Counted from the stretch's first letter, positions 10,459 through 30,327 are shown. The stretch: 41,611 nucleotides of DNA from a virus (IMGVR_UViG_2541047801_000004:1-41611); one strand, 5' to 3'. The notes: a model not told the origin generated them from the letters alone. Translations and numbers: made by a program.

Positions 10459-10475
10459 CGGGCGGTGGCATTCGT

Positions 10476-10500
10476 TAAAACAAGGCCGCTTTTGCGGCCT
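10476..10500 (-). terminator. rho-independent terminator after the lipoprotein gene (end of the upstream late transcript)
   Basis: Stem AGGCCGC/GCGGCCT with 4-nt loop, followed on the minus strand by TGTTTTAA. Confidence 0.5.
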
Positions 10501-10512
10501 GTGACATGTCAC
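10501..10512. repeat. 12-bp perfect palindrome GTGACATGTCAC (copy 1 of 3)
   Basis: Exact palindrome abutting the terminator hairpin between convergent ant and lipoprotein genes. Confidence 0.8.
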
Positions 10513-10515
10513 GAC

Positions 10516-10929
10516 TTATAAAGATGACTGATATTTTACAACTCTGTTCATGGCATCTTTTTTCACCGAGCTGATATCAGTTCTTATTTTGGCTTCGTCA
10601 TTACTGTTTATCATGCTATTAACTTTTTGCACTGACATGCCGTTTCTTTCAGCCATTGCACATACAGCAGCATCGTATGAAGAACTCGCTGCGATGGATA
10701 TCACCTTGTTACACTCAAACACAGCACCTTCAGCAATATCAGATGCCGATGATGCTGGCTTGGTATAAGTCTTGACGTAGTGATCAATACAACTATCCTT
10801 CGCCGTCTTGGCAAGAGAAAAATCCATTTTAACTTTGTCGCAATATGCCTTATCAACACCGTCATAAACATCATAGGATGTCGAGCAAGCGGATATCAAA
10901 AATACCGATAACAGCAATAATTCCTTCAT
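10516..10929 (-). CDS. prophage lipoprotein (possible exclusion/moron function)
   Basis: Signal peptide with lipobox LISAC; 137 aa; sits between ejection-protein genes and the ant module. Confidence 0.6.
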   Translation of the reverse strand: MKELLLLSVFLISACSTSYDVYDGVDKAYCDKVKMDFSLAKTAKDSCIDHYVKTYTKPASSASDIAEGAVFECNKVISIAASSSYDAAVCAMAERNGMSVQKVNSMINSNDEAKIRTDISSVKKDAMNRVVKYQSSL

Positions 10930-10938
10930 TGTTGTTCC

Positions 10939-13413
10939 TTATTGCGGAGTGACATCCTGAGGTCGCCACCAGTATGTCTGGTTAAACTCTTTCTTCGAAC
11001 GTTGCTCCATTTTACGCAAATAGCCTGGTGAAAAATACTCCTGCATCTGGTTAAAGATCATATGATCGAGAGCCGCCTTCAAGTACCAGAGATTCGCACC
11101 TGGCATCAGCCCCTTCCCCAGCTTAACCAGATCACCACCAGTCTGCTCACTCTTCCCTTCCACAGCATTTAGCGGTATGCCCTGAGCTATCTTCACTACG
11201 TCATCAACCAGACCAGCTACCGGGCCAAGCATCGACGCCAGCGCGCCGCTCCCGTACCTAGTGTGGTCAGAGAAAAGAAAATCACCGTACAACCCAGCCC
11301 CGCCACCTTTTAAAAATGCATTTATCCAGAATTTAACCATGTGGTCACCGGTCATTTCCTTTGGATTTCTCCCATTAATAAGATCAGTAATCTGCATGGA
11401 AAGAGCACCAAGCATGGTTGTGCTTGCTAAAAACGTTGCTATATATGCTGCACGCCCACCAGCAGACGGCATACCCATAGCGCGTGACCAGTGACGCATA
11501 ACAACCGAGATAGGGAACGATTTAAACAGGAAAACACTTCTCGTTAATTCACCTTTCCATGTTCCACGCTGAAGACCAGACCCTACGAACATCTGCTCAC
11601 GTGCGCCCGGTGTAATAACAGCCATATCAACTTCTTCAGTTACGGCACCGAGCAGTTTACGCATTGCCTCAAATTTCACGCGTTCAGGCTCACCAAGATG
11701 TTTAACTGCTGAATCAGGGATACGCATAATGCTTTCCGGTGTCAGCATCGTATTATTACCGTTCCCCCAGTCCTCCTGTTGCGCCAGCTTCCATACGCTC
11801 CAGTCTGTGTCAGTAATCCCTTTACTTTTCAGGATACGAAAATCAGAGTCATCGAGGCTACGAAGGTCTGGTGTCCGTGACACTACTTCTCCCAGGCTTC
11901 CCATCATGGTTACGCCATAGGCGCGCTTGTGCGCATCTGACCATGCTGTAAGCCCACTGGCACGCATTACCGCCGTTGCCGCCCAACGAGACACTGACGG
12001 CCCCATATTATCCATCGCCCAGCGGTTAACGCTGCCAAGTAGAGATTCCATCGCCAGACCAGCGCGGCGCGCCCGCGCAAGTTCTGTACGGTTCGTTGGG
12101 TCCATAGCTTCAAGCTGGTTGCGGAATAACTGGTTCATTGGAAGGTTGGTAACCTTCGCAGACAGATACATGGTTCCAAGATCAGAGAACGATGACAGCA
12201 ACGCGGATCCGAGTCTGCTGGCAACCAGCCAGTTGCGGATATTGTCAGACCATCGCGCGATGTGCGGATTCGCTACAGGCTGTGTCTTTCCGGAAATAAA
12301 GTTGTACAGATTCTCTGTGTTGTTCGCCAGCCGCTCGACTTTACCGGTTTTACTCGGGTTAGCTGTTGCCGTTTCTGCCTTCACCTGATCAAGAAGAGAG
12401 CGGAAAACATGATCGGGGTTTGGGCCATATGTTTCCACCAGTGCAATATCTTTACTGATACCTTCCAGGTGACCGACCATGATTTCCCATAGAGAGCGAT
12501 CGCCATAAAGTTGCTGATATTGCAGATAGGAATCTGCATCTTTGAAATGTATCTGTCGTGATGCATTACCACGGTTAGCACGTGCGCCGGAAATTCGCAT
12601 TCCGGTATCAGTAAGCTTATTCAGCCCACCAGTAGCGATCGTGTTATAAGCCTCTCCAAGAAATGCAGACAACTCGGCATCGTTCATCAGTTGTCCATCG
12701 GCTCGGATATAATATTTGCGATCCAGCTTACCTATAACATCGCTAACCCACTTATCCTTTGATACCGCCCCAACCTTTTCCATAGAATGATGTTGAGGGA
12801 TCCCCCAGTTTTCGAGATAGCCAATGTCCCCACCAGCATCATTAAACCGGCGGCGCAGTAGATCTGTCACTTCTCTCCACGCCTTAGCACCTTTTCTTGC
12901 TTTAGCATTGCCAGTATTTTGCCCTCGCATTTCATATACCAGGTCACGCACGCCAGCTTCATCTTCAAACAGGCCAAAAAAGCGAGGATCAACTGCTTCA
13001 AATGCCTCTTGCAATTGACTCAATGCATAATCACGAGTGGCTTTTGTTCTGGACTCAACAGAGAGGAAATTCGATTTACCGTCTGCATTAAAAGCAATAG
13101 TACGGTTAAGAGCGCCAAGTTTCCCATCAGCCCCTTGATAGCTATTGATAAATTTATCCAATCTCTGACGTGCGGCTATAGTGAGGGCCACACGACGTTT
13201 CTTTAATGCCGCTTCTCGCTGTAATTCTTCAGATGCCAATTGTGCTGCACGATATAGCCGCTCTGATTCGGAAAGTTGTCTCCACGACATCGGGTCATCA
13301 CGAGCAATGGAGCGCATATTTCGATAAATGCGGTCTTCAATGTTCTGTATTTCTCGCGCCGTTAACGTGCGCTGCGCCGCCTGCTGGACCGCTTGTATAC
13401 ATTCCTGTCTCAT
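10939..13413 (-). CDS. internal virion/ejection protein (large)
   Basis: 824-aa ORF within a run of large structural ORFs following tail tubular genes; no catalytic motif recognised. Confidence 0.55.
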   Translation of the reverse strand: MRQECIQAVQQAAQRTLTAREIQNIEDRIYRNMRSIARDDPMSWRQLSESERLYRAAQLASEELQREAALKKRRVALTIAARQRLDKFINSYQGADGKLGALNRTIAFNADGKSNFLSVESRTKATRDYALSQLQEAFEAVDPRFFGLFEDEAGVRDLVYEMRGQNTGNAKARKGAKAWREVTDLLRRRFNDAGGDIGYLENWGIPQHHSMEKVGAVSKDKWVSDVIGKLDRKYYIRADGQLMNDAELSAFLGEAYNTIATGGLNKLTDTGMRISGARANRGNASRQIHFKDADSYLQYQQLYGDRSLWEIMVGHLEGISKDIALVETYGPNPDHVFRSLLDQVKAETATANPSKTGKVERLANNTENLYNFISGKTQPVANPHIARWSDNIRNWLVASRLGSALLSSFSDLGTMYLSAKVTNLPMNQLFRNQLEAMDPTNRTELARARRAGLAMESLLGSVNRWAMDNMGPSVSRWAATAVMRASGLTAWSDAHKRAYGVTMMGSLGEVVSRTPDLRSLDDSDFRILKSKGITDTDWSVWKLAQQEDWGNGNNTMLTPESIMRIPDSAVKHLGEPERVKFEAMRKLLGAVTEEVDMAVITPGAREQMFVGSGLQRGTWKGELTRSVFLFKSFPISVVMRHWSRAMGMPSAGGRAAYIATFLASTTMLGALSMQITDLINGRNPKEMTGDHMVKFWINAFLKGGGAGLYGDFLFSDHTRYGSGALASMLGPVAGLVDDVVKIAQGIPLNAVEGKSEQTGGDLVKLGKGLMPGANLWYLKAALDHMIFNQMQEYFSPGYLRKMEQRSKKEFNQTYWWRPQDVTPQ

Positions 13414-13418
13414 TTAAT

Positions 13419-15221
13419 TTAACCTCTCAAGAAACACGCCACAGCGACATCAAACAGGCTGGAATCCTGTATTGCCTGCTCACTTTCCCTGTTCGCTTCA
13501 TCCAGTACTTCACGCGCTCTGCGCGATTGTGGATTACCATCATCATCCAGCACGGTGATTATCATGTCAGGTGATTCAAGCAGCGAGTCTTCAGCTATAC
13601 GCAGATCAATATCTCCTGCCGGATCTGCCATCATTTTTTGTTCTGCCTGTTGCAATATATTACCGGGCTCAAAAGGAGCTACTTCGTCTGGCGTCCTGAC
13701 CTCTGCTGTTTTATAGAATGAAACAGCCTGAGCATTAAGTTCACTTTCTGCCTGCTTTCTCCGAGCCAGTTCTGCTCGAGCTTCAAAAAACTGACCGCCA
13801 GGCTCGTGCGGTGCCAACGCGTTACGGGAAAATTCCAGGCGTTCTTGTGCCTGCCGGATTCGTTGATCAATATCGCGAAGTCTGGCCTGTTTATCTGATC
13901 GAGCACGAGACAAAGCTTTACCGCTACCGGTTGGCTCTTCTGCAAGAATTTGTGCACGCTGTTCAGTGAGATTTTCAATAATTCGTTGGCTATTAGCGAT
14001 TTCAGACTGGTAAACCTGTCTATCTCCACGCGGCAAAAGCTGCGCGGCCTGTTCTTCAAGCAACCGATTTTCTATAGCGCGCGCCGTTACTCCATCATCT
14101 ACAGATGACAGAGCCTCATTAACTGCCTGAGACAGCAGACTCTTGCGCCCAGGAATTTCACTGAAAGATGCAGACTCAACAATGCTGGCAACGTCTACAG
14201 GTCTCCCCTGGCTAACATCAGACATAGCTTTTCTCAGAGCCTGAATGTGAGAATTGCGCGAAAGCACGTTGATCGGCACGCCGGGCGCAATATCAATTTC
14301 AGCATGATGAGCGGCATTCGCCGCCAGTGCAGCATCGATATCAACTGGTGAAAAATTTGGTGCGCTTGTAGACTCGCCGCGAGAGTTAATAAATCTGCCG
14401 ACACCACCAAACGCCACCCCAAGAACAGCATCAATAGCAATTGCCTGTCGATCCAACACATCATACTGGTTAGCCATTTCGCTATAGCCACCATCACGAA
14501 GCGTTTTTGCAGTAAGCCCACGCTGTGCCATACCGAACGCAATATTTGTACCTGCGGCATAGGCAATATCTGGCGTTGCACGTACTGCTGTTGCTGCTGC
14601 GCGTCGCACTGAACTTTCACCCGTCCGCGCAAGCTGAGCCGCCACACCTTCCGCCAGCGCACCACCAGCACGTAACCCGAGGCTCATAGGGATCAGTGTT
14701 CCGGCACCAGCAGTAATACCCTGCACTAATCCCGCTTCCTGCGCTGCCCTGAAATCAACCCCCTGTGCTGTCAGCCGTTCAAACTCAGAAAAACCCTGTA
14801 GCGAAGTTACCGCCGCTGCACCTCCGACCGGACCACCGAGCGTTGTACCGACAACAGCCTGCCCGCCCATATCGAACAACCCATAAAGAACCTGCCCGGC
14901 GGTTCCGGTTGTCGCCGCATCAGGCGTCAGCCGCTTAACCTGCTGCTCTGCTAGTTTTCTCTGCTCGGCAATGTATGAAACTGAAGTGTCATTGAGCGAG
15001 GTGTTTTCGTTAACAAACTGAGCAATCGGGGATACGATTTTATCCATCCCTGCCCATAGCAACTGATCTGGCTTTGCCACCAGCCCGGAGTACAAACCAG
15101 ACAATGCCGCTCCTACAGCATTGTCGAAAAAACCAACATCACTGTTAAAGCCCGCTGGATTTGATGCTGCTTCGTCAAGTTGCTGATTCTGGTTTACTGG
15201 ATTAAGGCCAAAGTAACTCAT
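13419..15221 (-). CDS. internal virion/ejection protein
   Basis: 600-aa ORF, Ala/Gly-rich, in the structural operon. Confidence 0.55.
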   Translation of the reverse strand: MSYFGLNPVNQNQQLDEAASNPAGFNSDVGFFDNAVGAALSGLYSGLVAKPDQLLWAGMDKIVSPIAQFVNENTSLNDTSVSYIAEQRKLAEQQVKRLTPDAATTGTAGQVLYGLFDMGGQAVVGTTLGGPVGGAAAVTSLQGFSEFERLTAQGVDFRAAQEAGLVQGITAGAGTLIPMSLGLRAGGALAEGVAAQLARTGESSVRRAAATAVRATPDIAYAAGTNIAFGMAQRGLTAKTLRDGGYSEMANQYDVLDRQAIAIDAVLGVAFGGVGRFINSRGESTSAPNFSPVDIDAALAANAAHHAEIDIAPGVPINVLSRNSHIQALRKAMSDVSQGRPVDVASIVESASFSEIPGRKSLLSQAVNEALSSVDDGVTARAIENRLLEEQAAQLLPRGDRQVYQSEIANSQRIIENLTEQRAQILAEEPTGSGKALSRARSDKQARLRDIDQRIRQAQERLEFSRNALAPHEPGGQFFEARAELARRKQAESELNAQAVSFYKTAEVRTPDEVAPFEPGNILQQAEQKMMADPAGDIDLRIAEDSLLESPDMIITVLDDDGNPQSRRAREVLDEANRESEQAIQDSSLFDVAVACFLRG

Positions 15222-17731
15222 TGCGGAATATCTCCGGAGAATCTCTGACGCTTCTGTGTCAGATCAAGAACAACAGGAGAACCATCATCCTTCAGCAGAT
15301 ATCCAGTCCCAAGTTTTACCAAGTACTGACTATCGCCGTAACTTTGCAAACCATACTGACCAAGCGGTGTTTTTATCCCTGTGCCGACAACTTGTTCATT
15401 CCAAGCCTGATTAACCTGCTTATCGAATTGCTCTGCAGACATTCCCCACGGCAAAAGAACATTCCCCATTCCGTTATAGTCATGCACGCCACCTGTAGCT
15501 ACGTTAACAGCCTGTTTCCAGATATCATTGTCAATTTCGCCTGATACCACGCCTTTTTTCGCCATCACACCAGCGTAATAGTCCTTTGCGATCTCGTATG
15601 CCATTGATGCCCCCTGAGCATCACCAGCAAATGCATCCTTCACCATGTCAGAAAACTCAAGGCGAAGATCAGCATCTTTAGGCATCGGAATACCTTTCGC
15701 ATCATCAGTACCTTTACGAGCCGCCGCGCCAGCAAGAATTGTCTGCGCAGCGGTTTCAGGAGACACGGAAACATCCGGATTAAACCAGTTTTTTTCTGCC
15801 AAAATACCACCTGGCTTATCCATCAGTATCCCGGCAACGGCAGCAGATGGAGCGTTGGCACTGATCTGCTGTAGTGCTGACATATACACCTGCCCACCAC
15901 CAGTGCTTTGCCTGATGGTATCGAGATATGCTGCCTGTTGGGAAACGGGCGCATCACGAAAGAAAACACCGATCTGATTGGCCTCGTCTTTGGAAAAGAA
16001 CGTCAGTGGAGTGCCATATGACTTGGCAAGATCACTAACCTGAGCGGCACGCAAGGCAACGCTCTGTCCAAAGTTATCCTTATTGCTCATGTCGATAGGC
16101 TTTGCCTGTCCGGCGGCAAGAGAGAACTGCACAGGATCCGATTGCCGCTGCTTTATCACCTGATTTGCAGCCGAAACAACGTTGTCATAAAGAGCTGCGC
16201 GTGCCGCATACCCCTCCCCTGTCTCACCAGTATCCTGGCGTAATTGCTCAACATATGCTGTAATGCTGCTTGTCGGCATGTTGCGGAAAGAGCCTATATA
16301 CTGTCCGGCGATCTGCGTATTCTTAAACTCGGTATATCGCAGGTTTCCTTCTCTGACTCCATAAGCTGCAATAAAATCAGCCTCACCAGGTGGGTTAGGA
16401 AATTCAACTCCACGCATATACGCAGCTGTCGCATCTCGAACCCGGCTGTCAATCATCGTTTTATATTCAGCCTGCTGCTGCCGACGCAGTTGATCCGCCT
16501 GTCGCATAAAACTTGCCTGCGCCTCAGAAGATGCCGCATCGAATGCTGCATTACCGGTATAGCGTTTGGTGTTGGTTGGAATTGTTGATAAACCAAGTGC
16601 TGCACTGACACCAGCAGTTAACTGCTGATCACTGTATGGCTGGCTACCGTTCTCATGATGAATAATGGCTGCACAAAGCGCCTTCAGGGTATCAGGATTT
16701 GATGCATCGAGAGGCTCATCAGCAGAAACGCCAAGTTGTTCGCACACTGCTTTGATATACGACATAGTGTCATTTTTATCAGTGGGCGGTGCCCAACGAT
16801 TAATTATCTCGCTGACGGTATCGATACCCTGCCGCTGATACGACATCAGGTTCCGCCCTAATGCACGAATCCCGTGTTCAGGTGTTTCGAATTTAGCAAA
16901 TCGACCATCATCACCGGTCTGGCCTACCCACGGATTAGTTTTGCTGTATTCGAGATTTCCTGGGTTATTGTTGCGTATGCCACGGGCACGATCGGAATAG
17001 CTACTATCTGCTACAGCACGGCGAGCTCCAGCAGCAGTATCACTTAACTCGCCATTACTTTGGATGAATGCGGTCGCATTGTTTGCCGACCACTGGGACA
17101 ATGCGGCATCAGCAACCTTCTCTTTAAACTCGATTTTCTTGGCCTGTATTTGCTCGTCGCTCCAGCCATGCGCAATGCCGTAATCCTCAATTTGCTGGAA
17201 AGTTTGCTTATTAGCCAATACGTATGCGGCGTTGTCGCCATACAATGCTGCGGCATTTTTACCATTGTTCAGCAGCGTCGCCTGAAACTGGCCTTCTTCG
17301 TAGGCATTTATTTGCCCTATCTCGTGCCGCCCGGCCTGCGTAGTGAACTGAATACGCTGCTGCTGCGCCTGCTGCATGAAAGCATTACGAGCCTGTTCAT
17401 CCGGCAGCGACATAGCCAGTTGTTCGATCTGAGCATCAAACTGCTGCGTATACTCCTGACCTTTTCCAATAGCATTTTTCCCTTTCAGGTTAAGCAAACC
17501 TGTTTCAGGGTTATTCAGCAGATCGCTGCTTATCTGGCTTAAGCTAAGAGAATCATCCTGAGCCATAGCAACATTCGCACGCTGTTTTGCCTGCGCAATA
17601 ATACCTGCATATTGCTCTGCAACATCGCCAAGTACATCACCGACATTTGGTGTCTGAAACGATGAGAATCCCTGCGTCGAAATCCCTCTGCTCTGAACCT
17701 GACGGCCCGATGTTGTTGGTACAACTGGCAT
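15218..17731 (-). CDS. internal virion core protein (T7 gp15/16-like position)
   Basis: 837-aa ORF; position after gp13/14-like small proteins. Confidence 0.55.
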   Translation of the reverse strand: MPVVPTTSGRQVQSRGISTQGFSSFQTPNVGDVLGDVAEQYAGIIAQAKQRANVAMAQDDSLSLSQISSDLLNNPETGLLNLKGKNAIGKGQEYTQQFDAQIEQLAMSLPDEQARNAFMQQAQQQRIQFTTQAGRHEIGQINAYEEGQFQATLLNNGKNAAALYGDNAAYVLANKQTFQQIEDYGIAHGWSDEQIQAKKIEFKEKVADAALSQWSANNATAFIQSNGELSDTAAGARRAVADSSYSDRARGIRNNNPGNLEYSKTNPWVGQTGDDGRFAKFETPEHGIRALGRNLMSYQRQGIDTVSEIINRWAPPTDKNDTMSYIKAVCEQLGVSADEPLDASNPDTLKALCAAIIHHENGSQPYSDQQLTAGVSAALGLSTIPTNTKRYTGNAAFDAASSEAQASFMRQADQLRRQQQAEYKTMIDSRVRDATAAYMRGVEFPNPPGEADFIAAYGVREGNLRYTEFKNTQIAGQYIGSFRNMPTSSITAYVEQLRQDTGETGEGYAARAALYDNVVSAANQVIKQRQSDPVQFSLAAGQAKPIDMSNKDNFGQSVALRAAQVSDLAKSYGTPLTFFSKDEANQIGVFFRDAPVSQQAAYLDTIRQSTGGGQVYMSALQQISANAPSAAVAGILMDKPGGILAEKNWFNPDVSVSPETAAQTILAGAAARKGTDDAKGIPMPKDADLRLEFSDMVKDAFAGDAQGASMAYEIAKDYYAGVMAKKGVVSGEIDNDIWKQAVNVATGGVHDYNGMGNVLLPWGMSAEQFDKQVNQAWNEQVVGTGIKTPLGQYGLQSYGDSQYLVKLGTGYLLKDDGSPVVLDLTQKRQRFSGDIPQ

Positions 17732-17743
17732 CTTATTATCCCC

Positions 17744-18283
17744 TTATCGACCGGTTGGAGTGCCAACAGCAGCAGAAATCGGCGCAGCCTTCTGAGAGAA
17801 CGGGCTCCACGTTCCGCCGCCCATCTGGTATGCACCGTATGCTTTTAGTGGTGCCGTTAATAAAGTGCTGGTCATCGATGATTTAGCAGCCGACTGAGCA
17901 GCAGCCCCCTGTGCCTGAGCATTCATTCCCTGAACCTGATACCCATATGCCTCACGCTGAGCATTATTCACTGTCGTTAACGCATCAAGAGTGCCGAACT
18001 GAGCATTATCCGCAAAAACGTCAAGAGCTGTTCCGCTACTTAATTCCGCACCGGTAGCCCCCATAGTAGCCGCCGCAGTGCCTGAGCGTTGACGCATTTC
18101 ACGACGACGCTGATCCGCTTCAATATTCCCACGATTGATTGAATCCTGTGCCTGAGCTTCAGCAATTTCAGTATTCCGATCTGCTATGGCTGACTGGTAT
18201 TTTGCCTGCTTGCTCTGGCTGTACATTGACGCTGCTGTGGATGCCACTGTGACGGCAACCAAAGCGATGGCTGGGTTACACAT
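17744..18283 (-). CDS. internal virion protein (T7 gp14-like position)
   Basis: 179 aa, Ala/Gln-rich; position in the structural module. Confidence 0.5.
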   Translation of the reverse strand: MCNPAIALVAVTVASTAASMYSQSKQAKYQSAIADRNTEIAEAQAQDSINRGNIEADQRRREMRQRSGTAAATMGATGAELSSGTALDVFADNAQFGTLDALTTVNNAQREAYGYQVQGMNAQAQGAAAQSAAKSSMTSTLLTAPLKAYGAYQMGGGTWSPFSQKAAPISAAVGTPTGR

Positions 18284-22146: not shown

Positions 22147-22158
22147 ATACACTCCTGC

Positions 22159-22178
22159 AATAAAGGGGCCGAAGCCCC
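22159..22178 (-). terminator. intra-operon hairpin (GGGGC-CGAA-GCCCC) followed by TTTATT, possible partial terminator
   Basis: 5-bp GC stem plus T-rich tract on the minus strand just before the RBS of the 22146 gene. Confidence 0.35.
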
Positions 22179-22196
22179 TTGTCTGATTCGCGAGGC

Positions 22197-22541: not shown

Positions 22542-22542
22542 C

Positions 22543-22980
22543 TTAACCAGTTACTTTTGAGCGGATCGGATACGGCGTATTGGCATCAACATCAAGACTG
22601 ATACCAGCAGTGAATTCGCCAGCCGTTAGTGGACCAGTTGCGACGGAGTAGTTAACACGCAGATATCGCTGAACACCGGCAGGCACCTTTGCAGAAACAA
22701 CTCGTTTACCTGCTGTCAGGGCGGTCTTTGCCAGTGCGCCACTATCATAAATAGTGGTCCATGAGCTGTTATTCTCACTCGTCTGCAACTGGATGTTTAC
22801 AGTTGCATCACCGCTTGCCGCGGCGGCTGTGTTAACCAGCGCCCAAAACTCAAGCGGGTAACCAACGCCGATATCACGACGTTTTCCGTCAATTGGACCG
22901 AGATCGATTACGTCAGTAGAAGCCGCGGTATTCGTAACCGCCTGAGCTTCGGAGAACATCAACAGTTTGTCGGTGATCAT
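22543..22980 (-). CDS. putative capsid decoration/accessory protein
   Basis: 145-aa ORF immediately downstream of the major capsid gene. Confidence 0.45.
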   Translation of the reverse strand: MITDKLLMFSEAQAVTNTAASTDVIDLGPIDGKRRDIGVGYPLEFWALVNTAAAASGDATVNIQLQTSENNSSWTTIYDSGALAKTALTAGKRVVSAKVPAGVQRYLRVNYSVATGPLTAGEFTAGISLDVDANTPYPIRSKVTG

Positions 22981-23031
22981 CTTCTTTCTCCATTAGTGGG
23001 TCTGTTACGACCCACAGGTTAATAACAGGCG

Positions 23032-24024
23032 TTACACCACGCGGGCTTCTGTTTCCAGAAGCGCATCAGTTTCACGGATTGGTACACCACGGAATGAAGT
23101 CCACCACTCGCCTTCTGTCTCTTTTACGCTGATCGCCAGAGATGTTTTCTCCAGAGATTGCAGATCAAGAGCCTGGCCTACAGTGCGGTTCATGTAGAAC
23201 ACCGGGCGACCCATGCCACGATTTGGAATGCGATGCAGTGCTTTAACCATCAACTTCGCAATATTTGCGGCAGAGGAAGGTTCTGAAAGATTGCTGACAT
23301 CGATGTTTGCAATGCGAACAACATAACGCCAGTCACGCAGAGCAAGTCCGTTGTCCCATTTGTAATGGGTACGGTAGCCTTCGTACTTGCCGCCATTCGC
23401 ATCTTCCAGTGTCACCTGGCCTTTATCTTCCATCTGGATACCAGCCTTCTGCCCTTTCGGGAAGATGCCATGCACGGTGTTTTCGCCCCACACCACTAAC
23501 CAGATTGAGGTGTTATCTGTACCCGTGCCACCAGCATCAATGATGTTCTGAGCATTACCCGCAGACAGGCTGGAATAGCGGGAGGACAGTCCCATAAACT
23601 GCTGAGGGTTAACGCTGGAATCACCATAAAACAGTGTCTGCGCCATCTGCTGATTCATCGCTTCAATAAATGCGCGGTCTTCAGACAGGCGGAATTCGGC
23701 GGTATTACCGTTCAGATCAGCCAGTGACTTATCGACTTCAGCATAGGTTTCCAGCATGCCAACGGAATCGGTTACCTGCACTGTGGTTGATTTGCTTGGC
23801 TGTACGCCATAGTTCAGCAAACGCCAGGTAGCTGAAGGTAAACCAGAACGAATGGTGGTTCGGTGTCCGGTAGGAAGGTTCCCTTCGACAAAAGGCATAT
23901 CCTGAAGGATCGGGTTTGTTTGACCGAGAAGCTCGATAATCTTATCGACTTTCCCGTTTGGATCGACGCGCTTACCCCAGTCAGCCAGCGTTAGCGCAGT
24001 TAAGCCTTTAACAGCCATTGTCAT
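23032..24024 (-). CDS. major capsid protein
   Basis: 330-aa ORF after the scaffold-like gene. Confidence 0.7.
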   Translation of the reverse strand: MTMAVKGLTALTLADWGKRVDPNGKVDKIIELLGQTNPILQDMPFVEGNLPTGHRTTIRSGLPSATWRLLNYGVQPSKSTTVQVTDSVGMLETYAEVDKSLADLNGNTAEFRLSEDRAFIEAMNQQMAQTLFYGDSSVNPQQFMGLSSRYSSLSAGNAQNIIDAGGTGTDNTSIWLVVWGENTVHGIFPKGQKAGIQMEDKGQVTLEDANGGKYEGYRTHYKWDNGLALRDWRYVVRIANIDVSNLSEPSSAANIAKLMVKALHRIPNRGMGRPVFYMNRTVGQALDLQSLEKTSLAISVKETEGEWWTSFRGVPIRETDALLETEARVV

Positions 24025-24032
24025 TTCCTCTC

Positions 24033-24734
24033 TTATTTGCCATAGAGCACTTCGGCCGCACTACGCTGGCCTTCATTACCACCGGTGACCATGCCATCTT
24101 CAGACATCGCCTTTCCGATTTTCACGAACGTTTTGACCAGATCAGGGTGATTACCCAGCCCGGTGGTGTTCAGATATTCTTTGAGTTCAGGTGTCCCGAA
24201 CTGGTCAAGCGCACGCTGTGCGACGCTAAGGTTAGAAATCAACTTGTCGCCACCGATTTCTTTGTCAGCTTTTACATCCGCAGCCCACTGCTCGGTTGTT
24301 TTCTGCCAGGCTTCTGCCTGGCGCTGCTGAACACCTGCCAGAATCTTCGGATAAGCATCAACCAGCTTTTGCGCTTGCTCGTTGGTCAGGTTAAGTTCTC
24401 GCGCCACCGGCTCGAATTCCTTCAACGCTTCTGTATCCAGCTCTACGCCTTCGGCAGCCTGAAACTCGTACTTCTCAGGCGCCCCCTCTGGTTTATCGCC
24501 GCCCTTTTTTTCATCCTGCTTATCGTTTTCAGGCTTTTTGTCATCAGCAGGTTTATCGCCATCAGCAACAGGTTGTGGCTTATCGCCTTCCTGTTGTGAT
24601 GGATCACCAACTGGAGCAGGGGTATCACCTGCAGGCGCTGACGGTTCTGACGCAGCCGGAGCTGCTCCACCATCGACTGGTTGCTCATTGCAAAGACGGC
24701 GATACAGCAAACGCTCAAATAAATTCATGATCAC
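24033..24734 (-). CDS. putative scaffolding protein
   Basis: Acidic/proline-rich low-complexity N-terminal half and helical C-terminal half; between portal and capsid genes. Confidence 0.5.
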   Translation of the reverse strand: MIMNLFERLLYRRLCNEQPVDGGAAPAASEPSAPAGDTPAPVGDPSQQEGDKPQPVADGDKPADDKKPENDKQDEKKGGDKPEGAPEKYEFQAAEGVELDTEALKEFEPVARELNLTNEQAQKLVDAYPKILAGVQQRQAEAWQKTTEQWAADVKADKEIGGDKLISNLSVAQRALDQFGTPELKEYLNTTGLGNHPDLVKTFVKIGKAMSEDGMVTGGNEGQRSAAEVLYGK

Positions 24735-25027
24735 TCCTGTTCACTGGCCTCTTTGGCCATCTTCAAATACTGTTCAGGGCAATGCGCCATAACGCGCTGA
24801 AACAGTTCCAACGCCAGATTGCGTTGCCCCTCATTAAATGCCATTGCCATAGCGTCCATCGGTGAGATAGCGGAAAACACACGGCCTTTCTCCAGCACCG
24901 ACCAGACAACGCGACGCCCCTGTTCACTGCTCATGACAAAGCGAATGTCATCAATTTCACGCTGCGCCATGTCACGTTGCTTACGGGCGTTTTCTTCTTT
25001 CAGTTGATCGTCTTCGTAATCTGTCAT
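24731..25027 (-). CDS. hypothetical protein between portal and scaffold
   Basis: 98-aa ORF with overlapping start/stop to neighbours. Confidence 0.45.
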   Translation of the reverse strand: MTDYEDDQLKEENARKQRDMAQREIDDIRFVMSSEQGRRVVWSVLEKGRVFSAISPMDAMAMAFNEGQRNLALELFQRVMAHCPEQYLKMAKEASEQE

Positions 25028-26703
25028 TGTGATTGCCCACCCTGACCACTAACTGCATTCGCCATAGCTGACAAAACACTCGGATCCGAAGTTTTAGCTT
25101 CGCTTAGCGTCTTGGCACCCTGTGCCGCCGCCATCCCCATCGCCATCATTTGTTGCTGCTGTTGCTGCTGTGCCCGTTGCTGGCGAGCCTGCTCAACCTG
25201 TTCCTGCGGAACAATGACGGTTGGAGACACTCCGGACATATCAGCGAATGCATCGATCGCCTGATCAACGTTGAGTTTGTCGAGAGCTTCTGGTTTCGCT
25301 TGCGCAAGTTGACCAATGAAGTTAACCGTGGACGCCAGACTGGACAGGCCGATAGACTTCTGCGCCTGAGCCATGACGGAAATGTATTCGACCTTCAGGG
25401 GCATGCCTTCCATCGCGTCAGGCGGTGGCGGCAGCATGTTTTTACGCACCATCATCGAGAAAGCGCGGTCAATGAGAGGATTAAGACATTCGTCGTTCAG
25501 ACGCTCCAGAACCGGCCCCAACATCAGAAGTTTTTCTTCTTTCATTTCGATCACCGCTTCAACAGGCATCGAGCGGGTATTGATGTTCTGCAACATCATG
25601 AACAGATCGACAAAGTAGGCGCTGTTAATGATTTGACGAGTGTCCTGAATGTCTGCCACCAAATCTGCTGTACTGGGGTTAACCAGATAAGCAGGCCTGA
25701 AGCCATCCTGACCAGTAATCTGATCGATATACGTGATGTCGCCAGGAAGAAGGGAGGCGCGCTGATTCTTGAGGGAATTCGGAGCAACCATCGGCGGATT
25801 GGTGGCTTTATCAATCAACTGCGACTTGCGCTTCTGGAGAAGCTGCAATGCCTTAACAGGTCCAAGCGCCAGCATACCCGGGCATGATGATCCATAAACA
25901 TCTTCGCCGTTAACTTCCCAGCGCGGAGCCATAATTGGAAACTCATCGAATCCGGACTCACGCAACAACTTGTCGTTATCGCCACCAATCTCGTAATAAA
26001 CCGATTTGAATGGCTTGTTCTTGCTATCCAGCTTCGATGTATCACGGTCAATGTTCGGGTAAACCGAATGCATCACTTCAATCCACTTCTCGTAGGTGCC
26101 GCTTTCCCACATGCTTTTTACGGATTCGCTGACGTTATTTAGCCCGAACTCCTGAACAAGCTGACGAACAGTCATAGAGAACTTGCGAAAACAGGTGTCC
26201 ACACTGCCACGAGGTGAGTTAGCCAGGTAGTAACTGCCTATCGGGAATGGCATTGTGCGAATGATGTCCTCGTCATCCTCCAGCACTGCCATTGCACCAG
26301 TGCTGTATGTGCCGAGGCTTCCGTATAACTGCGGCAGCGACTGATAGAGATTCGACTTATTGAACATATCGTTCATGCGGTTCTGCACCGCCTCAAGCCA
26401 CAACTTAACAGGGCCATAATCCATCATTTCAGGATCTGGCGTAGCCAGGCGAAACCACGGACGCGCGGGGCTTGTGATGCCTGACATCATGCCGCTGGCG
26501 AGAGTGCGCGCCGCCATAGTCCCGGTCGAATCAATAATGCGTGTATTGCGTCGATCGTTACGGTTGACCTCAGAAGTCAGAAAGCGGGAACCACGCGGAT
26601 TGATGTAATCACTCAACTCGCGCCAGTGCGGCTCGAACGACTGACGCTCGCTTTCAAGTTGTGCGAACTGTTTGTTCAATCGCTCTTTAGTTGTTTCCGC
26701 CAT
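25024..26703 (-). CDS. portal (head-to-tail connector) protein, T7-like
   Basis: 559 aa; Gln-rich C-terminal tail (QQRAQQQQQQQMMAMGMAAAQ); follows terL. Confidence 0.7.
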   Translation of the reverse strand: MAETTKERLNKQFAQLESERQSFEPHWRELSDYINPRGSRFLTSEVNRNDRRNTRIIDSTGTMAARTLASGMMSGITSPARPWFRLATPDPEMMDYGPVKLWLEAVQNRMNDMFNKSNLYQSLPQLYGSLGTYSTGAMAVLEDDEDIIRTMPFPIGSYYLANSPRGSVDTCFRKFSMTVRQLVQEFGLNNVSESVKSMWESGTYEKWIEVMHSVYPNIDRDTSKLDSKNKPFKSVYYEIGGDNDKLLRESGFDEFPIMAPRWEVNGEDVYGSSCPGMLALGPVKALQLLQKRKSQLIDKATNPPMVAPNSLKNQRASLLPGDITYIDQITGQDGFRPAYLVNPSTADLVADIQDTRQIINSAYFVDLFMMLQNINTRSMPVEAVIEMKEEKLLMLGPVLERLNDECLNPLIDRAFSMMVRKNMLPPPPDAMEGMPLKVEYISVMAQAQKSIGLSSLASTVNFIGQLAQAKPEALDKLNVDQAIDAFADMSGVSPTVIVPQEQVEQARQQRAQQQQQQQMMAMGMAAAQGAKTLSEAKTSDPSVLSAMANAVSGQGGQSQ

Positions 26704-26717
26704 TTCAATGACTCCGG

Positions 26718-26924
26718 TTACTGACCAAGTAGCGTTTTACCGCTGGTATTAGCGGTTGATGTGTCGCCCTGAGAACCGGTAAGCAGCGTAGAACTACGAC
26801 CAGCAGCAGCGCGACGGCGACGTGTTTCTTCGTCGCGGGCATCAACAACGGCGGCATCCTGCTCCTGTGGTGCTGCCTGAACTTCTGGTGTTGCAGGCAC
26901 TGATGGTGAGCTACCCATGCACAT
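26718..26924 (-). CDS. small low-complexity protein upstream of portal
   Basis: ATG 26924 with GGAG RBS 8 nt upstream; 68 aa rich in Ala/Ser/Thr/Arg. Confidence 0.4.
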   Translation of the reverse strand: MCMGSSPSVPATPEVQAAPQEQDAAVVDARDEETRRRRAAAGRSSTLLTGSQGDTSTANTSGKTLLGQ

Positions 26925-27013
26925 ATCAATGACTCCGTACGCAATTAAATTATTACCAATTTAACCACATATGATTTATCTATCGTAGATAGTTGACATT
27001 TAACGCACGAATT

Positions 27014-27030
27014 ATTACCTTTCAGGTAAG
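27014..27030. promoter_or_regulatory. operator-like 17-bp dyad (ATTACC TTTCA GGTAAG) overlapping a TTGACA -35-like element at 26992-26997
   Basis: Family member upstream of the tRNA/moron unit. Confidence 0.4.
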
Positions 27031-27351
27031 CAAAGAGTTCATTCCGGTTATTAACCTGACTGGCTTGTCGTTAAATTAAACAGGTGGGGTGAGCTTTTAT
27101 TTTGAGCAGTACGGCGTATGGCACATGCGCCGATAGCGGTCTGGATACGTTTAAGGGGCACCCTCCCTTGCTCGGGCAAACGAACCAGGTAGCCGGAATG
27201 TGCAAGTCGAGCGGTTTTATTCCGCGCACGGGGATTCACCATCCCGGCGATTCGGTGTGACGCCTCGGAAGAGACGAGGGTACAACGATGAGAGCATTTA
27301 TGGAGCCGCGACAAAGTGTGGCGCCTTAACAGGCTAAGTGCTCTCAGCGTT

Positions 27352-27428
27352 GTGGCATTAGCTCAGTTGGACAGAGCAACCGCCTTCTAAGCGGTTGGTC
27401 GCAGGTTCGAATCCTGCATGCCACGCCA
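27352..27428 (+). tRNA. tRNA-Arg (anticodon TCT, reads AGA)
   Basis: 77 nt; acceptor stem GTGGCAT/ATGCCAC, D-stem GCTC/GAGC, anticodon stem ACCGC/GCGGT with loop CTTCTAA, T-arm GCAGG-TTCGAAT-CCTGC, discriminator G, encoded CCA. Confidence 0.9.
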
Positions 27429-27471
27429 GAATCACGCCTAAGGACCGTGATGCCAGAAGTTCCAGGTGCTT

Positions 27472-27513
27472 GGCGGTGATAGTTTCCCTTGAAGGACTAT
27501 CACCGCCCTTTTT
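27472..27513 (+). terminator. hairpin terminator after the tRNA
   Basis: 12-bp perfect stem GGCGGTGATAGT/ACTATCACCGCC followed by CTTTTTA. Confidence 0.55.
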
Positions 27514-27591
27514 ACAGCAGGACGCCATTGCGATGACTTCATGCTGTAAACCAGTACAGCCACGGAAGGCATAACTCATTGCTTCCAGTTC

Positions 27592-27615
27592 GCCCGGTTC
27601 GCCGGGCATTTTTTT
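27592..27615 (+). terminator. rho-independent terminator immediately upstream of the moron RBS
   Basis: Stem GCCCGG/CCGGGC with TTCG tetraloop, then ATTTTTTT; RBS AAGGTGAG and ATG at 27627 follow directly. Confidence 0.6.
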
Positions 27616-27626
27616 AAGGTGAGATC

Positions 27627-28046
27627 ATGAAGACAATTGATATGTTGGCTAAGTATCTAAATGAATGGCCATTAAAATATTCTCGTATCGTTCAGGCTGA
27701 AGACTGCATTTTTTATGGCGTTCTTGCTGGTAATGAAATGCATTACGAAGTAATTCAGAGTGAGGGACTGGCTGGGTTAACTCTTAGCGAAGACCATGGT
27801 ACTAGCGTTACGTTCCATGACTGGATAACAGCACAACGTTCTGAAATGGAAAAAGGCGATGTTTTTGATATTTCTCGCGCTGTTTACGCTAAAGCAAAAA
27901 GTGATAATGATTACATGAGCGAACACTTATACAACATGAAGTTGCAATGCCTGCATGCGGCGCTTATTCAGAATGGGCACTTCGATAAAACAAGTGCCAT
28001 CAATATTGCGGAAGCCATCAACGCTGGATTTAATGCCATTAAGTAA
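27627..28046 (+). CDS. hypothetical moron protein (139 aa), low GC
   Basis: Strong RBS; opposite strand to the late operon; own terminator downstream; no recognisable motif. Confidence 0.6.
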   Translation: MKTIDMLAKYLNEWPLKYSRIVQAEDCIFYGVLAGNEMHYEVIQSEGLAGLTLSEDHGTSVTFHDWITAQRSEMEKGDVFDISRAVYAKAKSDNDYMSEHLYNMKLQCLHAALIQNGHFDKTSAINIAEAINAGFNAIK

Positions 28047-28050
28047 CACC

Positions 28051-28062
28051 GTGACATGTCAC
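28051..28062. repeat. 12-bp perfect palindrome GTGACATGTCAC (copy 2 of 3)
   Basis: Exact palindrome 5 bp after the moron stop codon. Confidence 0.8.
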
Positions 28063-28066
28063 AAAC

Positions 28067-28093
28067 AGCCAGCCGATGAGCTGGCTTTGTTTT
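28067..28093 (+). terminator. rho-independent terminator of the moron gene
   Basis: Stem AGCCAGC/GCTGGCT with loop CGATGA, followed by TTGTTTT. Confidence 0.55.
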
Positions 28094-28136
28094 ATCCTCA
28101 TCAGAGGATATCAACGACATTATCCCCACCAGCAGA

Positions 28137-29612
28137 TTAAGCATATGGATCGTAATCTGTGATGGCCTTGCCTTGCTGGTTCTGCTGCCCGGGAATTCGC
28201 AGACGCTTCGACACAGGGAACGCAAACGTCAGCAGTAGCGCATCGCCTTTACCAGGAGAACGCCCAAGCCGCTCCTTGATATCTTCCTTCGGTTCGATAA
28301 CGATTTTACCGTCCACTCGAACTTTGTACTCTGCCGCCGACAGGTCGTCCGCTGTTTCCTGGTCATCCAGCATGCCGCCCAGCCTCAGCCATGTCTTACA
28401 TGAGTTGAACATCTCCCCGCGCTTGTTGAGCATCTGAGGGTCAGTTGACGCACCACCGAACGGAACAAGTTGCCATGTACGACCCCAGCCATCACCGATT
28501 GACTTCAGACCGGTTCCGTAACCGAAGTCGATGAACACCGCGTCAGCATTGTACTGGTCTTCAAAGTCAGCGATACGCTTCGCCATAATCAGATCGTCGG
28601 TGGTCTTGTTACCAGTCCATAGCACCTTACTGTGCAGCCCCTGCCGCAGGTATATCACCGCGTCATCAACGCCTGAGTATGCCGGGTCAACGCCGATTAT
28701 CACCGGAGCATGTGCAACCTGCGCAGCGGTGACCACCCGTTTCATTGCCTCGTCAGTAAGTCCGGTAGGGATAAACTGCAATTCAGATGCATCCGGGAAT
28801 ATGCCGCGCACACGGATTTTAACGAAGTCGCTGTCTTCCCCGTAGTCATCAACCCATTTCTGCAACTGCTGTTTGTTAGTGCCTTCCACCGTCCGGCTGT
28901 CAATCTGCGCAGTTTTCCAGCGGTGTTTGTATTTGCGGAAACATTCGCGAAAACGCCCGGTATTACGTGTAGGGTTTCCGAACGCCACCCAGATAATCTC
29001 AGTGTCTTCGTCCGTAAGCGCACCCTCAGCAACTTCCCACACCAGATCCGCAATGTTCGACGCTTCATCGAATACCACGATGATGCGTTTTCGCTCGTTG
29101 TGTAGTCCGGCGAATGCCTCAGTGTTGTGCTCAGACCAGGGGATTGCGTCAGCTCGCCACCGCTTGTCGTGCCCAGGATCATTGCTGTACATCGCGGTAG
29201 CGGTACAGGTAAACCAGTCTTTCGTGATAGCAAGGTTCGACCACTTGATAATTTCCGGCCAGGTCTTCGTTCGTAGCTGGTTGTCGGTGTTGGCGGTCAC
29301 CACGACCTTACAATCCTCGCAAGTGGACATGCCCCAGTTGATCAACATTGAGATGTATGCTGATTTACCAATACCGTGACCCGAAGCACGTGCCAGCATA
29401 AGCGGCTGATAGCGCGTCTCGGGATTCTGCAGGTGATCACGTATCTCTCGGAACGCATCGGCCTGCCACTGACGTGGGCCGGTAGCATGTGCCAGTTCAG
29501 TCCCCTCTTCCCCCCACGGGAACGCATAGAGGGCATAGCCAAGCGGATCGTGAGTGAACCCTGCAATATCCTCGATCAACTGCTCTTCAGGAGATAACGC
29601 TGCATCTGTCAC
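28137..29612 (-). CDS. terminase large subunit
   Basis: 491 aa; ATPase-like N-terminal region (GHGIGKSAYIS) and nuclease-like C-terminal region; start overlaps the terS stop. Confidence 0.8.
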   Translation of the reverse strand: MTDAALSPEEQLIEDIAGFTHDPLGYALYAFPWGEEGTELAHATGPRQWQADAFREIRDHLQNPETRYQPLMLARASGHGIGKSAYISMLINWGMSTCEDCKVVVTANTDNQLRTKTWPEIIKWSNLAITKDWFTCTATAMYSNDPGHDKRWRADAIPWSEHNTEAFAGLHNERKRIIVVFDEASNIADLVWEVAEGALTDEDTEIIWVAFGNPTRNTGRFRECFRKYKHRWKTAQIDSRTVEGTNKQQLQKWVDDYGEDSDFVKIRVRGIFPDASELQFIPTGLTDEAMKRVVTAAQVAHAPVIIGVDPAYSGVDDAVIYLRQGLHSKVLWTGNKTTDDLIMAKRIADFEDQYNADAVFIDFGYGTGLKSIGDGWGRTWQLVPFGGASTDPQMLNKRGEMFNSCKTWLRLGGMLDDQETADDLSAAEYKVRVDGKIVIEPKEDIKERLGRSPGKGDALLLTFAFPVSKRLRIPGQQNQQGKAITDYDPYA

Positions 29613-30205
29613 TGATTGCCATCCTGACGTTCTTTGAGTCGCTTCCTGGCTGCTGCTATGCGATCAGCAATTGTCACATTCACATTAACATCCAGGCGTT
29701 CTTTGAATGCGTTGACGTCGACGTGCTTACCAATCAGTTCGAGGTTCTTCACCTTGTCAGGCCATTTAATTTTTTTGAGGATTGTCTCTATCGAATCCTC
29801 GTTCATGTTCATGATGGTCGATGACAGATCAAAGCCACTAAGCGTAGTGCGCCAGATTTTCGGCCACTCGCGGATTGGCTTAAGGCTCCCATCGTCGTTG
29901 AGGATATCGATCACGTCCATCTGGTCGATCTCCACCAGGCGCATGAGAACGTAATCAGCACTGACGCGCATTCGTTTGTTGCGCTCCTCCATCAACTCGG
30001 CAATCCGTTTTTGAATGCGTTCATCGCGCATCATGACACTGGCTTTAACTGCCGCTGTATTTGGGGAGAATCCTGCGTTAATCGCTGCCTGAGTCTGGTT
30101 TTCAGGCGTTTTGATGTATGACTGGCAATAAGCCTCCTGCATTGCGGTTAGTGGCTTAAATTGCGTTGATTTGCGTTTATAGGTTTTAGGTTCAGCAGGC
30201 ATCAT
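29609..30205 (-). CDS. terminase small subunit
   Basis: ATG-ATG at 30205/30202 with GGGTGG RBS; about 198 aa; directly upstream of terL. Confidence 0.65.
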   Translation of the reverse strand: MMPAEPKTYKRKSTQFKPLTAMQEAYCQSYIKTPENQTQAAINAGFSPNTAAVKASVMMRDERIQKRIAELMEERNKRMRVSADYVLMRLVEIDQMDVIDILNDDGSLKPIREWPKIWRTTLSGFDLSSTIMNMNEDSIETILKKIKWPDKVKNLELIGKHVDVNAFKERLDVNVNVTIADRIAAARKRLKERQDGNQ

Positions 30206-30221
30206 AACCACCCTGGTAATT

Positions 30222-30238
30222 GTTACCGTTGTGGTAAT
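30222..30238. promoter_or_regulatory. operator-like 17-bp dyad (GTTACC GTTGT GGTAAT) upstream of terS
   Basis: Family member 17-33 bp upstream of the terS start. Confidence 0.4.
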
Positions 30239-30249
30239 AGTACCATGCA

Positions 30250-30275
30250 AAATAAAGCCGCCATAGTTGGCGGCA
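30250..30275 (-). terminator. rho-independent terminator separating early-right genes from the late operon
   Basis: On the minus strand, stem GCCGCC/GGCGGC with loop AACTAT, followed by TTTATTTT. Confidence 0.5.
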
Positions 30276-30315
30276 GTATTCAAAACCCATCAAATTCATC
30301 ATGCATAATCTACTC

Positions 30316-30327
30316 GTGACATGTCAC
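30316..30327. repeat. 12-bp perfect palindrome GTGACATGTCAC (copy 3 of 3)
   Basis: Exact palindrome overlapping the stop codon of the 30324-30671 gene. Confidence 0.8.

Follow-up and report, generated by a model that had tools for sequence, protein, structure and literature searches.

The 12-bp palindrome GTGACATGTCAC occurs three times in a 41,611-nt stretch of viral DNA (IMGVR_UViG_2541047801_000004:1-41611, the whole of which we call the window), and palindromes of this type are very probably the DNA target of a small protein that the same genome encodes at 30324-30662, a member of the phrog_536 family. Among phages, gene and site form a linked cassette, with one site fused to the gene's stop codon and one to three more elsewhere in the genome. 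Our preferred explanation, to which we give a probability of about 60% as a whole, is that the palindrome is the core of a 14-bp operator read by the phrog_536 protein, with a role at the boundaries of transcription units. This would pair a widespread ‘hypothetical’ phage protein with a precise and testable predicted DNA target.

Three exact copies in the window

Exact copies of the palindrome lie at three places in the window and nowhere else in it. They are listed here with the gene whose end one of them overlaps:

10501-10512, no strand: copy 1, 3 nt past the stop codon of 10516-10929, the gene that closes late unit 2
28051-28062, no strand: copy 2, in the 3' untranslated region (UTR) of an accessory gene (27627-28046), 4 nt past its stop codon
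30316-30327 (as a 14-mer, 30315-30328), no strand: copy 3, which includes the TGA stop codon of the gp55-family gene
30324-30662, minus strand: the last early-right gene, with a GTG start, encoding the putative cognate binding protein of 112 amino acids; phrog_536 (phiV10 gp55/epsilon15 gp49/N15 gp46 family)

An earlier note on this DNA had held that three exact copies are more than chance would give, and this is borne out, as 0.01 copies are expected and none of 100 dinucleotide shuffles reaches three. Tolerating two mismatches adds just one site in the window, which is the chance level. The same note had placed every copy at or near a stop codon and beside a terminator hairpin, and both statements are right for all three: the copies lie 0-4 nt from a stop codon or overlap it (3 nt, 4 nt and stop inside), with an intrinsic terminator 0-41 nt downstream (abutting, at 4 nt and at 41 nt). 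Its description of the copies as intergenic fits copies 1 and 2 but fails for copy 3, which covers the last codon and the stop of the 30324-30662 gene (TGA at 30324-30326, minus strand). The conserved unit is longer than the 12-mer, at 14 bp (Y-GTGACATGTCAC-R, that is, YGTGAC-N2-GTCACR), and 186 of 192 half-sites have a pyrimidine before GTGAC.

The site follows the phrog_536 gene

The linkage of site and gene was measured in an unbiased sample chosen by protein similarity alone (from an 11-sequence alignment), with one genome per species, which comprised 67 loci and 1.233 Mb. The motif lies at -12 to +80 nt of the homologue's stop codon in 40 of the 67, mostly at -3 with the TGA inside the motif, and 60 loci have at least one site within 10 kb on either side. 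In all there are 91 sites against 1.2 expected. Their geometry is strict: a spacer of 2 accounts for the 91, and spacers of 0, 1, 3, 4 and 5 give 1, 0, 2, 1 and 0 in the same sequence, where everted and direct arrangements give 0-2 sites and control palindromes 0-7. These spacer and control counts, together with 3 copies against 0.01 expected in the window, rule out a chance origin of the 12-mer. Complete phages that carry the gene have one to three sites each against 0.04 expected. Single half-sites are enriched neither in gene-carrying phages nor in the sampled loci. The background counted was that of three phages without the gene, lambda, P22 and P2, whose 124 kb contain 0 sites.

The association reaches across deep divergence. 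Distant homologues are found by tblastn in ZF40, Pantoea AH07, N15 (gp46), phiKO2, P2-like Yersinia phages, and Vibrio and Aeromonas phages, and homologues are also present in N15-like phage-plasmids. In ZF40, Pantoea AH07, N15 and a P2-like Yersinia phage, where identity is 31-65%, all four stop codons abut or lie inside GTGAC-NN-GTCAC, and the centres of these four sites are AT, CT, TG and GC. Members with 28-37% identity, found in a Mu-like prophage and in metagenomic contigs, have GTGAC-N2-GTCAC nearby in 6 of 8 loci, where the one other 5-N2-5 palindrome to recur is an AATAG palindrome in L209. N15 shares its three sites, all with centre TG/CA, with an N15-like Citrobacter phage-plasmid whose structural genes are different. 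The earlier note had listed a binding site for a phage regulator or a nucleoid-like protein among its readings, and comparison strongly supports this one, since a candidate operator with invariant half-sites co-occurs with one predicted ribbon-helix-helix (RHH) family at about 90 independent loci.

Several individual loci add detail. The N15 sites (L129; 28550, 33237 and 39269) and those of the Citrobacter plasmid (L215; 46891, 3878 and 10444) are of three types: one falls within the 5' portion of repA, one at the stop of gp46 and one in the leader/promoter region of the icd-antirepressor operon. The Mu-like prophage (L200) encodes its 37%-identity member at 6001-6390, where the early region ends and with gemA and mor directly downstream; one site lies in the gene's own 3' end and a second 5.4 kb upstream. 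L207 has tandem GTGACGCGTCAC sites at 8475 and 8498 (also L208, at 3550 and 3573), 23 bp apart from start to start and 10 nt past the stop codon of a Bro-N antirepressor gene; the phrog_536 homologue of that phage is 36% identical, and this is another association with the end of an ant gene.

The predicted binding protein

The phrog_536 family carries the label ‘transcriptional regulator’, which is inference only. The 30324-30662 protein has no sequence match in Pfam, NCBIfam or PDB, and every one of the 727 to 1022 homologues found is ‘hypothetical’. The family numbers about 190 clusters at 50% identity and is carried by Uetakevirus, N15-like phage-plasmids, and P2-like, Mu-like and lambdoid prophages of enterobacteria, vibrios and aeromonads.

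AlphaFold with a shallow alignment gave a predicted local distance difference test (pLDDT) score of 54, which was unusable, and a diverse 59-sequence alignment reaching to 25% identity was used instead. The resulting monomer model (pLDDT 91.7) begins with an N-terminal helix, followed by a short extended stretch and a pair of helices, and it closes with a four-Cys knuckle and a short C-terminal helix. As modelled, the core is an RHH (beta-alpha-alpha) fold to which a basic N-terminal helix and a C-terminal zinc knuckle are added. Weak Pfam matches to RHH families occur among the 59 diverse members, all below cut-off (RHH_5 in two, E 0.013; RepB-RCR_reg in one, E 0.028). Foldseek searches of the model against PDB and BFVD were uninformative, and hhalign of the family against single CopG, omega and MatP sequences gave no signal.

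Parts of this model can be matched to parts of the site. The RKxxQRxR stretch of the N-terminal helix is nearly invariant, as are the half-sites. The putative beta-strand reads xK[LIV]EL.LD where the centre of the site is AT, AG or AC, and NEIRARLE in the Yersinia clade, where it is GC; R and K also occupy those positions in Vibrio K303, whose sites have centres GC and AC. This covariation would represent one or two independent events and is suggestive only; along with the symmetry of the 14-bp site, it is consistent with binding through the beta-ribbon of an RHH dimer. We propose that the protein recognises YGTGAC-N2-GTCACR as double-stranded DNA, with the N-terminal helix presumably reading the GTGAC half-sites and the RHH beta-ribbon the variable central dinucleotide. 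For the duplex form of the predicted target, the site-bearing sequences are YGTGACATGTCACR and TGTGACATGTCACG.

Half-sites of this kind also appear elsewhere. Unrelated high-GC viral contigs have 4-12 GTCACG/CGTGAC half-sites arrayed in the coding linker of open reading frames (ORFs) of the replication module (L021 10625-11038, L068 1743-2156, L040 562-975, L050 2969-3382 and L106 10668-11081), one of which has, by eye, a YdaU/DUF1376-like N-terminus. The arrays come directly after a basic ERKRRQRER-type motif that resembles the phrog_536 N-terminal helix, and they may be iterons read by a similar helix.

DNA or RNA

The palindrome looks like an element that acts as DNA and not as RNA, because its half-sites are invariant and do not covary, it is used in either orientation, some copies are intragenic, and its RNA folds are weak. 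Site centres are often non-palindromic, with the orientation going either way, and the intragenic sites of cII-like, phrog_2479 and repA genes always read xGT GAC ATG TCA CAx, with variable neighbouring residues. Folded as RNA, the palindrome forms at most 4-5 weak pairs, none of them in the minimum free energy structure at copy 1, and it has no U tract. It is therefore not an intrinsic terminator itself, the true terminators being separate, adjacent hairpins. Rfam matches nothing at the three copies (isrK, C4 and one tRNA are found elsewhere in the window only), which together with the weak folds rules out a known RNA family there.

We accordingly see only a very slim chance for an RNA-level element, be it a terminator component, a signal for processing or stability, or the seed of a small RNA (sRNA) from the 3' UTR. 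It would suit the observation that every copy in the window is transcribed as 3' UTR directly 5' of a terminator hairpin, which is the layout of 3'-UTR sRNAs. Besides the poor hairpin, the invariance without covariation and the lack of an Rfam match, it has against it the many sites that lie in ORFs, in either orientation, or without a terminator after them.

Among the intragenic sites, conserved ones lie in cII-like genes (phrog_163), close to the 3' end, and within a small gene of the early-left region (phrog_2479). Loci with such sites are L128 (ZF40, at 5125 and 7622), L184, L186, L196, L185, L179, L158, L167, L177, L143, L145, L148, L149 and L154, and in ZF40-type phages two sites about 2.5 kb apart bracket the immunity region. 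A further coding context is the start of a family of Q-like antiterminator genes, whose first codons ATG CGT GAC ATG TCA CAG (MRDMSQ) contain the 14-mer (IMG/VR loci L009, L014, L019, L070, L111 and L120); the single gene tested fell in phrog_79, and we take these genes to be of the P22/phage-82 type. In L209 a site lies 24 nt upstream of the Q gene, and in AH07 one lies within the Q zinc-finger codons.

An island of conservation at mosaic joints

The 12-mer is retained at the same three places in related phages, a comparison that the earlier note had proposed. It is exact at all three in epsilon15 and Tyrion, and in phiV10 as well, where the ends of the GenBank record divide the third copy; phiv142-3 has two exact copies and one GTGACACGTCAC (centre AC). 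The surroundings are far less stable: the 120-nt flanks of copies 1 and 2 fall to 53-64% identity in many phage pairs, the accessory genes beside the motif are unrelated between phages, and the terminator hairpins differ by compensatory changes. Because flanks, neighbouring genes and hairpins differ while the motif stays exact, the palindrome is an island of perfect conservation at mosaic joints and is selected in its own right. A scan of IMG/VR for the 14-mer gave more than 119 loci, most of which fall in two recurring contexts: one in which the stop codon of a variable gene is followed by the motif and then, after 0 to 5 nt, by a terminator, and one at the 3' end of homologues of the 30324-30662 gene.

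The position of the motif at mosaic joints raises the possibility of a recombination linker, a short homology used to swap accessory genes between phages, and the earlier note had named a recombination hotspot. The joints fall exactly at the motif, where a shared terminator adjoins genes that differ between phages, and the phage encodes RecE/RecT-type functions. Yet 12-14 bp is very short for homologous exchange, joints are expected anyway at an island of purifying selection, and such a linker explains neither the fusion to the stop codon of one family in unrelated phages (N15, P2-like, Mu-like) nor the strict spacer and the intragenic copies. As a primary function, recombination thus finds no support, the joints being explained by the island of selection, and we consider it very improbable.

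The motif's location near the terminase genes could likewise suggest a packaging (pac/cos) signal, and other site-specific functions in the same vein are a replication origin or a methylation or restriction target. Copy 3 is about 100 bp upstream of terS, the phiV10 record begins in mid-palindrome, and the half-site arrays described above resemble iterons in replication genes. However, the phiV10 start is a convention, the record merely beginning directly after the gp55 stop, which disposes of a genome terminus or pac site at that point; N15 has its cos defined elsewhere, far from its three sites; and the sites of ZF40 and AH07 are far from terS. A methylation target, which the earlier note had also raised, is rejected, since lone half-sites show no enrichment and the CATG centre varies. 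We regard this whole group of functions as having a minute probability.

A proposed role at unit boundaries

Under the preferred explanation, the phrog_536 protein would be bound within the 3' UTR, a short way before the intrinsic terminators of three units, namely the early-right operon, the accessory gene (which faces terL) and late unit 2 (which faces ant). The features concerned are these:

10473-10500 (hairpin 10483-10500), minus strand: intrinsic terminator of late unit 2, AGGCCGCAAAAGCGGCCT followed by TGTTTT; abuts copy 1
10516-10929, minus strand: lipoprotein-like accessory gene, the variable last gene of late unit 2; phrog_8691, lipobox LISAC
9619-10458, plus strand: Bro-N antirepressor gene (ant), convergent on copy 1; preceded by isrK and C4-type RNAs
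27627-28046, plus strand: variable accessory (‘moron’) gene, phrog_4846; its position is filled by other genes in relatives
28067-28096 (hairpin 28067-28086), plus strand: intrinsic terminator of the accessory gene, AGCCAGCCGATGAGCTGGCT followed by TTGTTTT; 4 nt past copy 2
28137-29612, minus strand: terminase large subunit gene (terL), the last gene of late unit 1; convergent on copy 2
30247-30274 (hairpin 30257-30274), minus strand: intrinsic terminator between the early-right operon and terS, GCCGCCAACTATGGCGGC followed by TTTATTTT; 41 nt downstream of copy 3 along transcription
29609-30205, minus strand: terminase small subunit gene (terS); the ORF is open to 30283, and the start ATG at 30205/30202 is inferred from the epsilon15 gene model

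There the protein would act as a boundary element that hinders RNA polymerase from entering the next or the convergent unit. At the stop codon of its own gene, it would restrict how often its message is completed or read through, as a polymerase stalled about 15 nt upstream would leave that message without a stop codon. The earlier note's placement of the copies at unit boundaries is correct for the window phage, and it has statistical backing: 61 of the 91 sampled sites (67%) lie at -16 to +6 of an ORF stop, against 9.4% of random positions, and 22 (24%) have both a stop and a terminator-like hairpin within 50 nt, against 0.5%. The 91 sites show no enrichment near start codons.

This form of termination has relatives. 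Protein roadblocks to transcription include those of LacI, CodY and CcpA, and terminators of the Reb1/TTF-I type are another case; the likeness is that the model proposed here has a DNA-bound protein at the end of a unit stopping or slowing polymerase near a release signal. We know of no phage system that uses a dedicated RHH protein to mark the ends of several units.

A number of observations weigh against the preferred explanation. The boundary role does not generalise beyond the window phage, and a terminator follows within 90 nt of the own-stop site in just 14 of 39 cases. In some relatives terS or another ORF begins 8-20 nt past the site, where a roadblock would silence essential downstream genes. 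Other sites are inside cII-like, repA and phrog_2479 genes or in the N15 promoter/leader region, and for a polymerase coming along the late operon, the site at copy 2 comes after the hairpin and not before it. As for the protein, 27 of the 67 sampled homologues have no site at their own stop, nor does the Vibrio K303 homologue, and the link between protein and site is drawn from co-occurrence, the predicted fold and one or two lineage-level covariations. An absolutely invariant GTGAC over so diverged a family would, moreover, be unusual for a private repressor-operator pair and hints at an external constraint such as host MatP. Because several relatives have essential genes immediately after the site, we give the specific roadblock mechanism little weight and hold it to be doubtful, though conceivable.

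What follows the own-stop sites is itself diverse, and can be a terminator, an xis-like gene, a LexA-box-like promoter or an ORF starting 8-20 nt away. The LexA-box-like TACTGT-N8-ACAGTA comes after the stop of the phrog_536 homologue in L133, L134, L139, L145, L148, L149 and L154, and its sequence suggests an SOS-controlled promoter of the next module.

The genes around copy 3 also invite comparison with lambda Q, and the palindrome might be a loading site for an antiterminator that is recruited on DNA and moves to passing RNA polymerase, allowing read-through of the terminator before terS and later of that of late unit 2 towards the tail-fibre and lysis genes. As in lambda, the regulator is the last early-right gene, with a DNA site and a terminator directly after it and before the late/packaging genes, so that regulator gene, site, terminator and terS line up with Q, qut, tR' and the late genes. 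Copies 1 and 3 are upstream of a terminator in the operon direction, ZF40-type sites lie inside both early operons at nut-like positions, and a start of terS 8 nt past the site in terminator-less relatives is tolerable for a loader, though not for a roadblock. The C-terminal half of the protein (helix plus finger) has a marginal profile match to the RNA-polymerase-binding TraR/YbiI zinc finger (E about 0.04), and copy 3 has a weak promoter-like match with GTGACA as its -35 (GTGACA-18-CATGAT, 9 of 12 positions).

Other findings speak against such a loading site. The protein has no Q-family or other antiterminator domain (no Phage_antitermQ or Antiterm match) and no Pfam zf-dskA_traR match, and its Cys spacing is CxxC-x8-C-x7-C against CxxC-x17-CxxC in DksA/TraR. 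Antitermination at copy 2 would drive transcription of the accessory gene antisense into terL, to no use, and repressor operators before terS, late unit 2 and the tail fibre suggest a separate promoter for each late unit. The promoter-like match is not above shuffle expectation and is not conserved in relatives, and as it is the only one at the copies, a promoter there was rejected. In contrast to qut, the site does not lie between the -35 and -10 of a demonstrable promoter, and further phrog_536-linked sites occur at other unit ends and in unrelated contexts. Nothing like a terminator follows the own-stop site in AH07, N15 and many prophages; AH07, N15 and L209 carry a family member alongside a Q protein. 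Q-like loading would thus fit the gene order and the close-terS relatives better than a roadblock does, and copy 2 worse, and we judge it unlikely overall.

Resemblance to MatP and matS

The phrog_536 family is almost confined to phages whose hosts are Enterobacterales, Vibrio, Aeromonas or Alteromonadales. This is the clade with MatP/MukBEF, and the host range matches that of the MatP/matS system. The 13-bp matS site, GTGAC-RNY-GTCAC (GTGAC[AG]N[TC]GTCAC), has the same inverted GTGAC/GTCAC half-sites as the phage palindrome (PMC3603311, PMC8669397), and MatP contacts it with an RHH (PMC12756933), the fold predicted here. Both systems have few sites per replicon, some of them intragenic. True matS is avoided by prophages (PMC3603311), and the window has no site with the 3-bp spacer of matS.

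The phage palindrome could in this light be ‘matS minus one base’, part of an architectural system for bridging or condensation, or for interplay with structural maintenance of chromosomes (SMC)/MukBEF complexes, the divisome or SMC-based defences, with gene 3' ends as the least disruptive places to park sites. Half-site invariance would suit it, as it suggests an external constraint. The differences are considerable, however. The spacer is 2 bp where that of matS is 3 (91 N2 against 2 N3 sites in 1.23 Mb), and the phage protein lacks both PF06303 (the N-terminal four-helix bundle) and PF17414 (RHH plus coiled coil), which true MatPs carry. It shows no detectable homology to MatP (hhalign of phrog_536 against E. 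coli MatP, probability 0.3%, and thus below 1%), and it has a single N-terminal helix, a zinc knuckle, and no C-terminal coiled coil for the bridging and the ZapB/MukB contacts of MatP. The sites are on phage genomes with a bias to gene 3' ends, and neither the stop/terminator bias nor the 0-5 nt spacing to hairpins is predicted by an architectural role, which we find rather improbable.

A more specific version, that phrog_536 proteins are phage-borne minimal MatP analogues whose private sites give the phage genome a MatP-like identity of its own, seems to us quite improbable. Such proteins might then bridge or condense phage DNA, displace or unload complexes of the SMC type (MukBEF, SMC defences), or serve as a tether to the division apparatus. 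If this were true, the altered spacer would insulate the phage from host MatP, and the invariance of GTGAC and the MatP-clade hosts would reflect shared ancestry or interplay with the host system. The shared half-sites and the shifted spacer make a link to chromosome-organising machinery directly testable.

Other known systems

Returning to the operator read by a phrog_536 protein, RHH proteins with palindromic operators are already known in kind. P22 Arc, Mnt, CopG, omega of pSM19035, ParD and TacA resemble the proposed pair as small RHH proteins with a short palindrome or paired heptads and a linked gene and site, and the two inverted 7-bp units (YGTGACA/TGTCACR) recall the WATCACW heptads of omega. 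Their operators, however, overlap their own promoters, whereas here one site is fused to a stop codon and others are in 3' UTRs or genes. The phrog_536 protein also adds an N-terminal recognition-type helix and a C-terminal zinc module, and its half-site is invariant family-wide where those of the repressor pairs diversify. Another 12-bp palindrome, the SlmA-binding sequence GTGAGTACTCAC, is bound by a TetR-family protein; it has the same length and the same outer four bases (GTGA....TCAC), but its inner four are GTAC where those of the window palindrome are CATG.

Our literature search found no paper with the 12-mer, on the phrog_536 family, or on a MatP-like system of phages. As far as we can tell, what is new is the stop-codon-fused operator, the copies in 3' UTRs next to terminators, the family-wide invariance of the half-sites, and the matS-minus-one geometry. 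Should the protein enforce or relieve termination, temperate phages would have a new means of insulating mosaic modules and accessory genes. For annotation, the motif offers a practical marker of unit ends and of the phrog_536 regulator in prophages.

Surroundings in the window

The window phage is a phiV10/epsilon15-like podovirus (Uetakevirus) with its late genes on the minus strand. Over the late genes it is about 97% identical to phiV10 and phiv142-3, and its nucleotide identity to epsilon15 is about 77%. Other genes replace 10516-10929 in phiV10, phiv142-3, epsilon15 and Tyrion. In relatives, the terminator at copy 2 has compensatory stem changes (AGCCCGC...GCGGGCT), and a hairpin homologous to 30257-30274 is also present in epsilon15 and Tyrion.

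A second set of palindromes accompanies the other ends of the units:

30204-30238, no strand: two operator-like ATTACC-N5-GGTAAT palindromes at the start of the terS unit, of the epsilon15 repressor-operator type (NC_004775 annotation)

ATTACC-N5-GGTAAT has 13 matches in the window at up to two mismatches, against 1.07 expected, with 17-mers at 8277, 9397, 9490, 27014, 30204, 30222, 33422, 33484, 35797, 36509 and 36571. They lie at the starts of the terS unit and late unit 2, in the ant/isrK and tail-fibre regions, and also in the immunity region. Because operator palindromes stand at their starts, the late units seem to be directly controlled by the repressor. In the window, epsilon15-type operators stand at unit starts and GTGAC palindromes at three unit ends.

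A tRNA-Arg(TCT) gene at 27352-27428 (plus strand) is within the accessory island between terL and the remaining late genes, with two plus-strand terminators after it. Before and overlapping the start of ant, Rfam identifies isrK, an Hfq-binding sRNA, at 9542-9618 and a C4 antisense RNA at 9637-9723 (both plus strand), and isrK, C4 and Bro-N together form a P1/N15-type RNA-controlled ant module, here in a podovirus.

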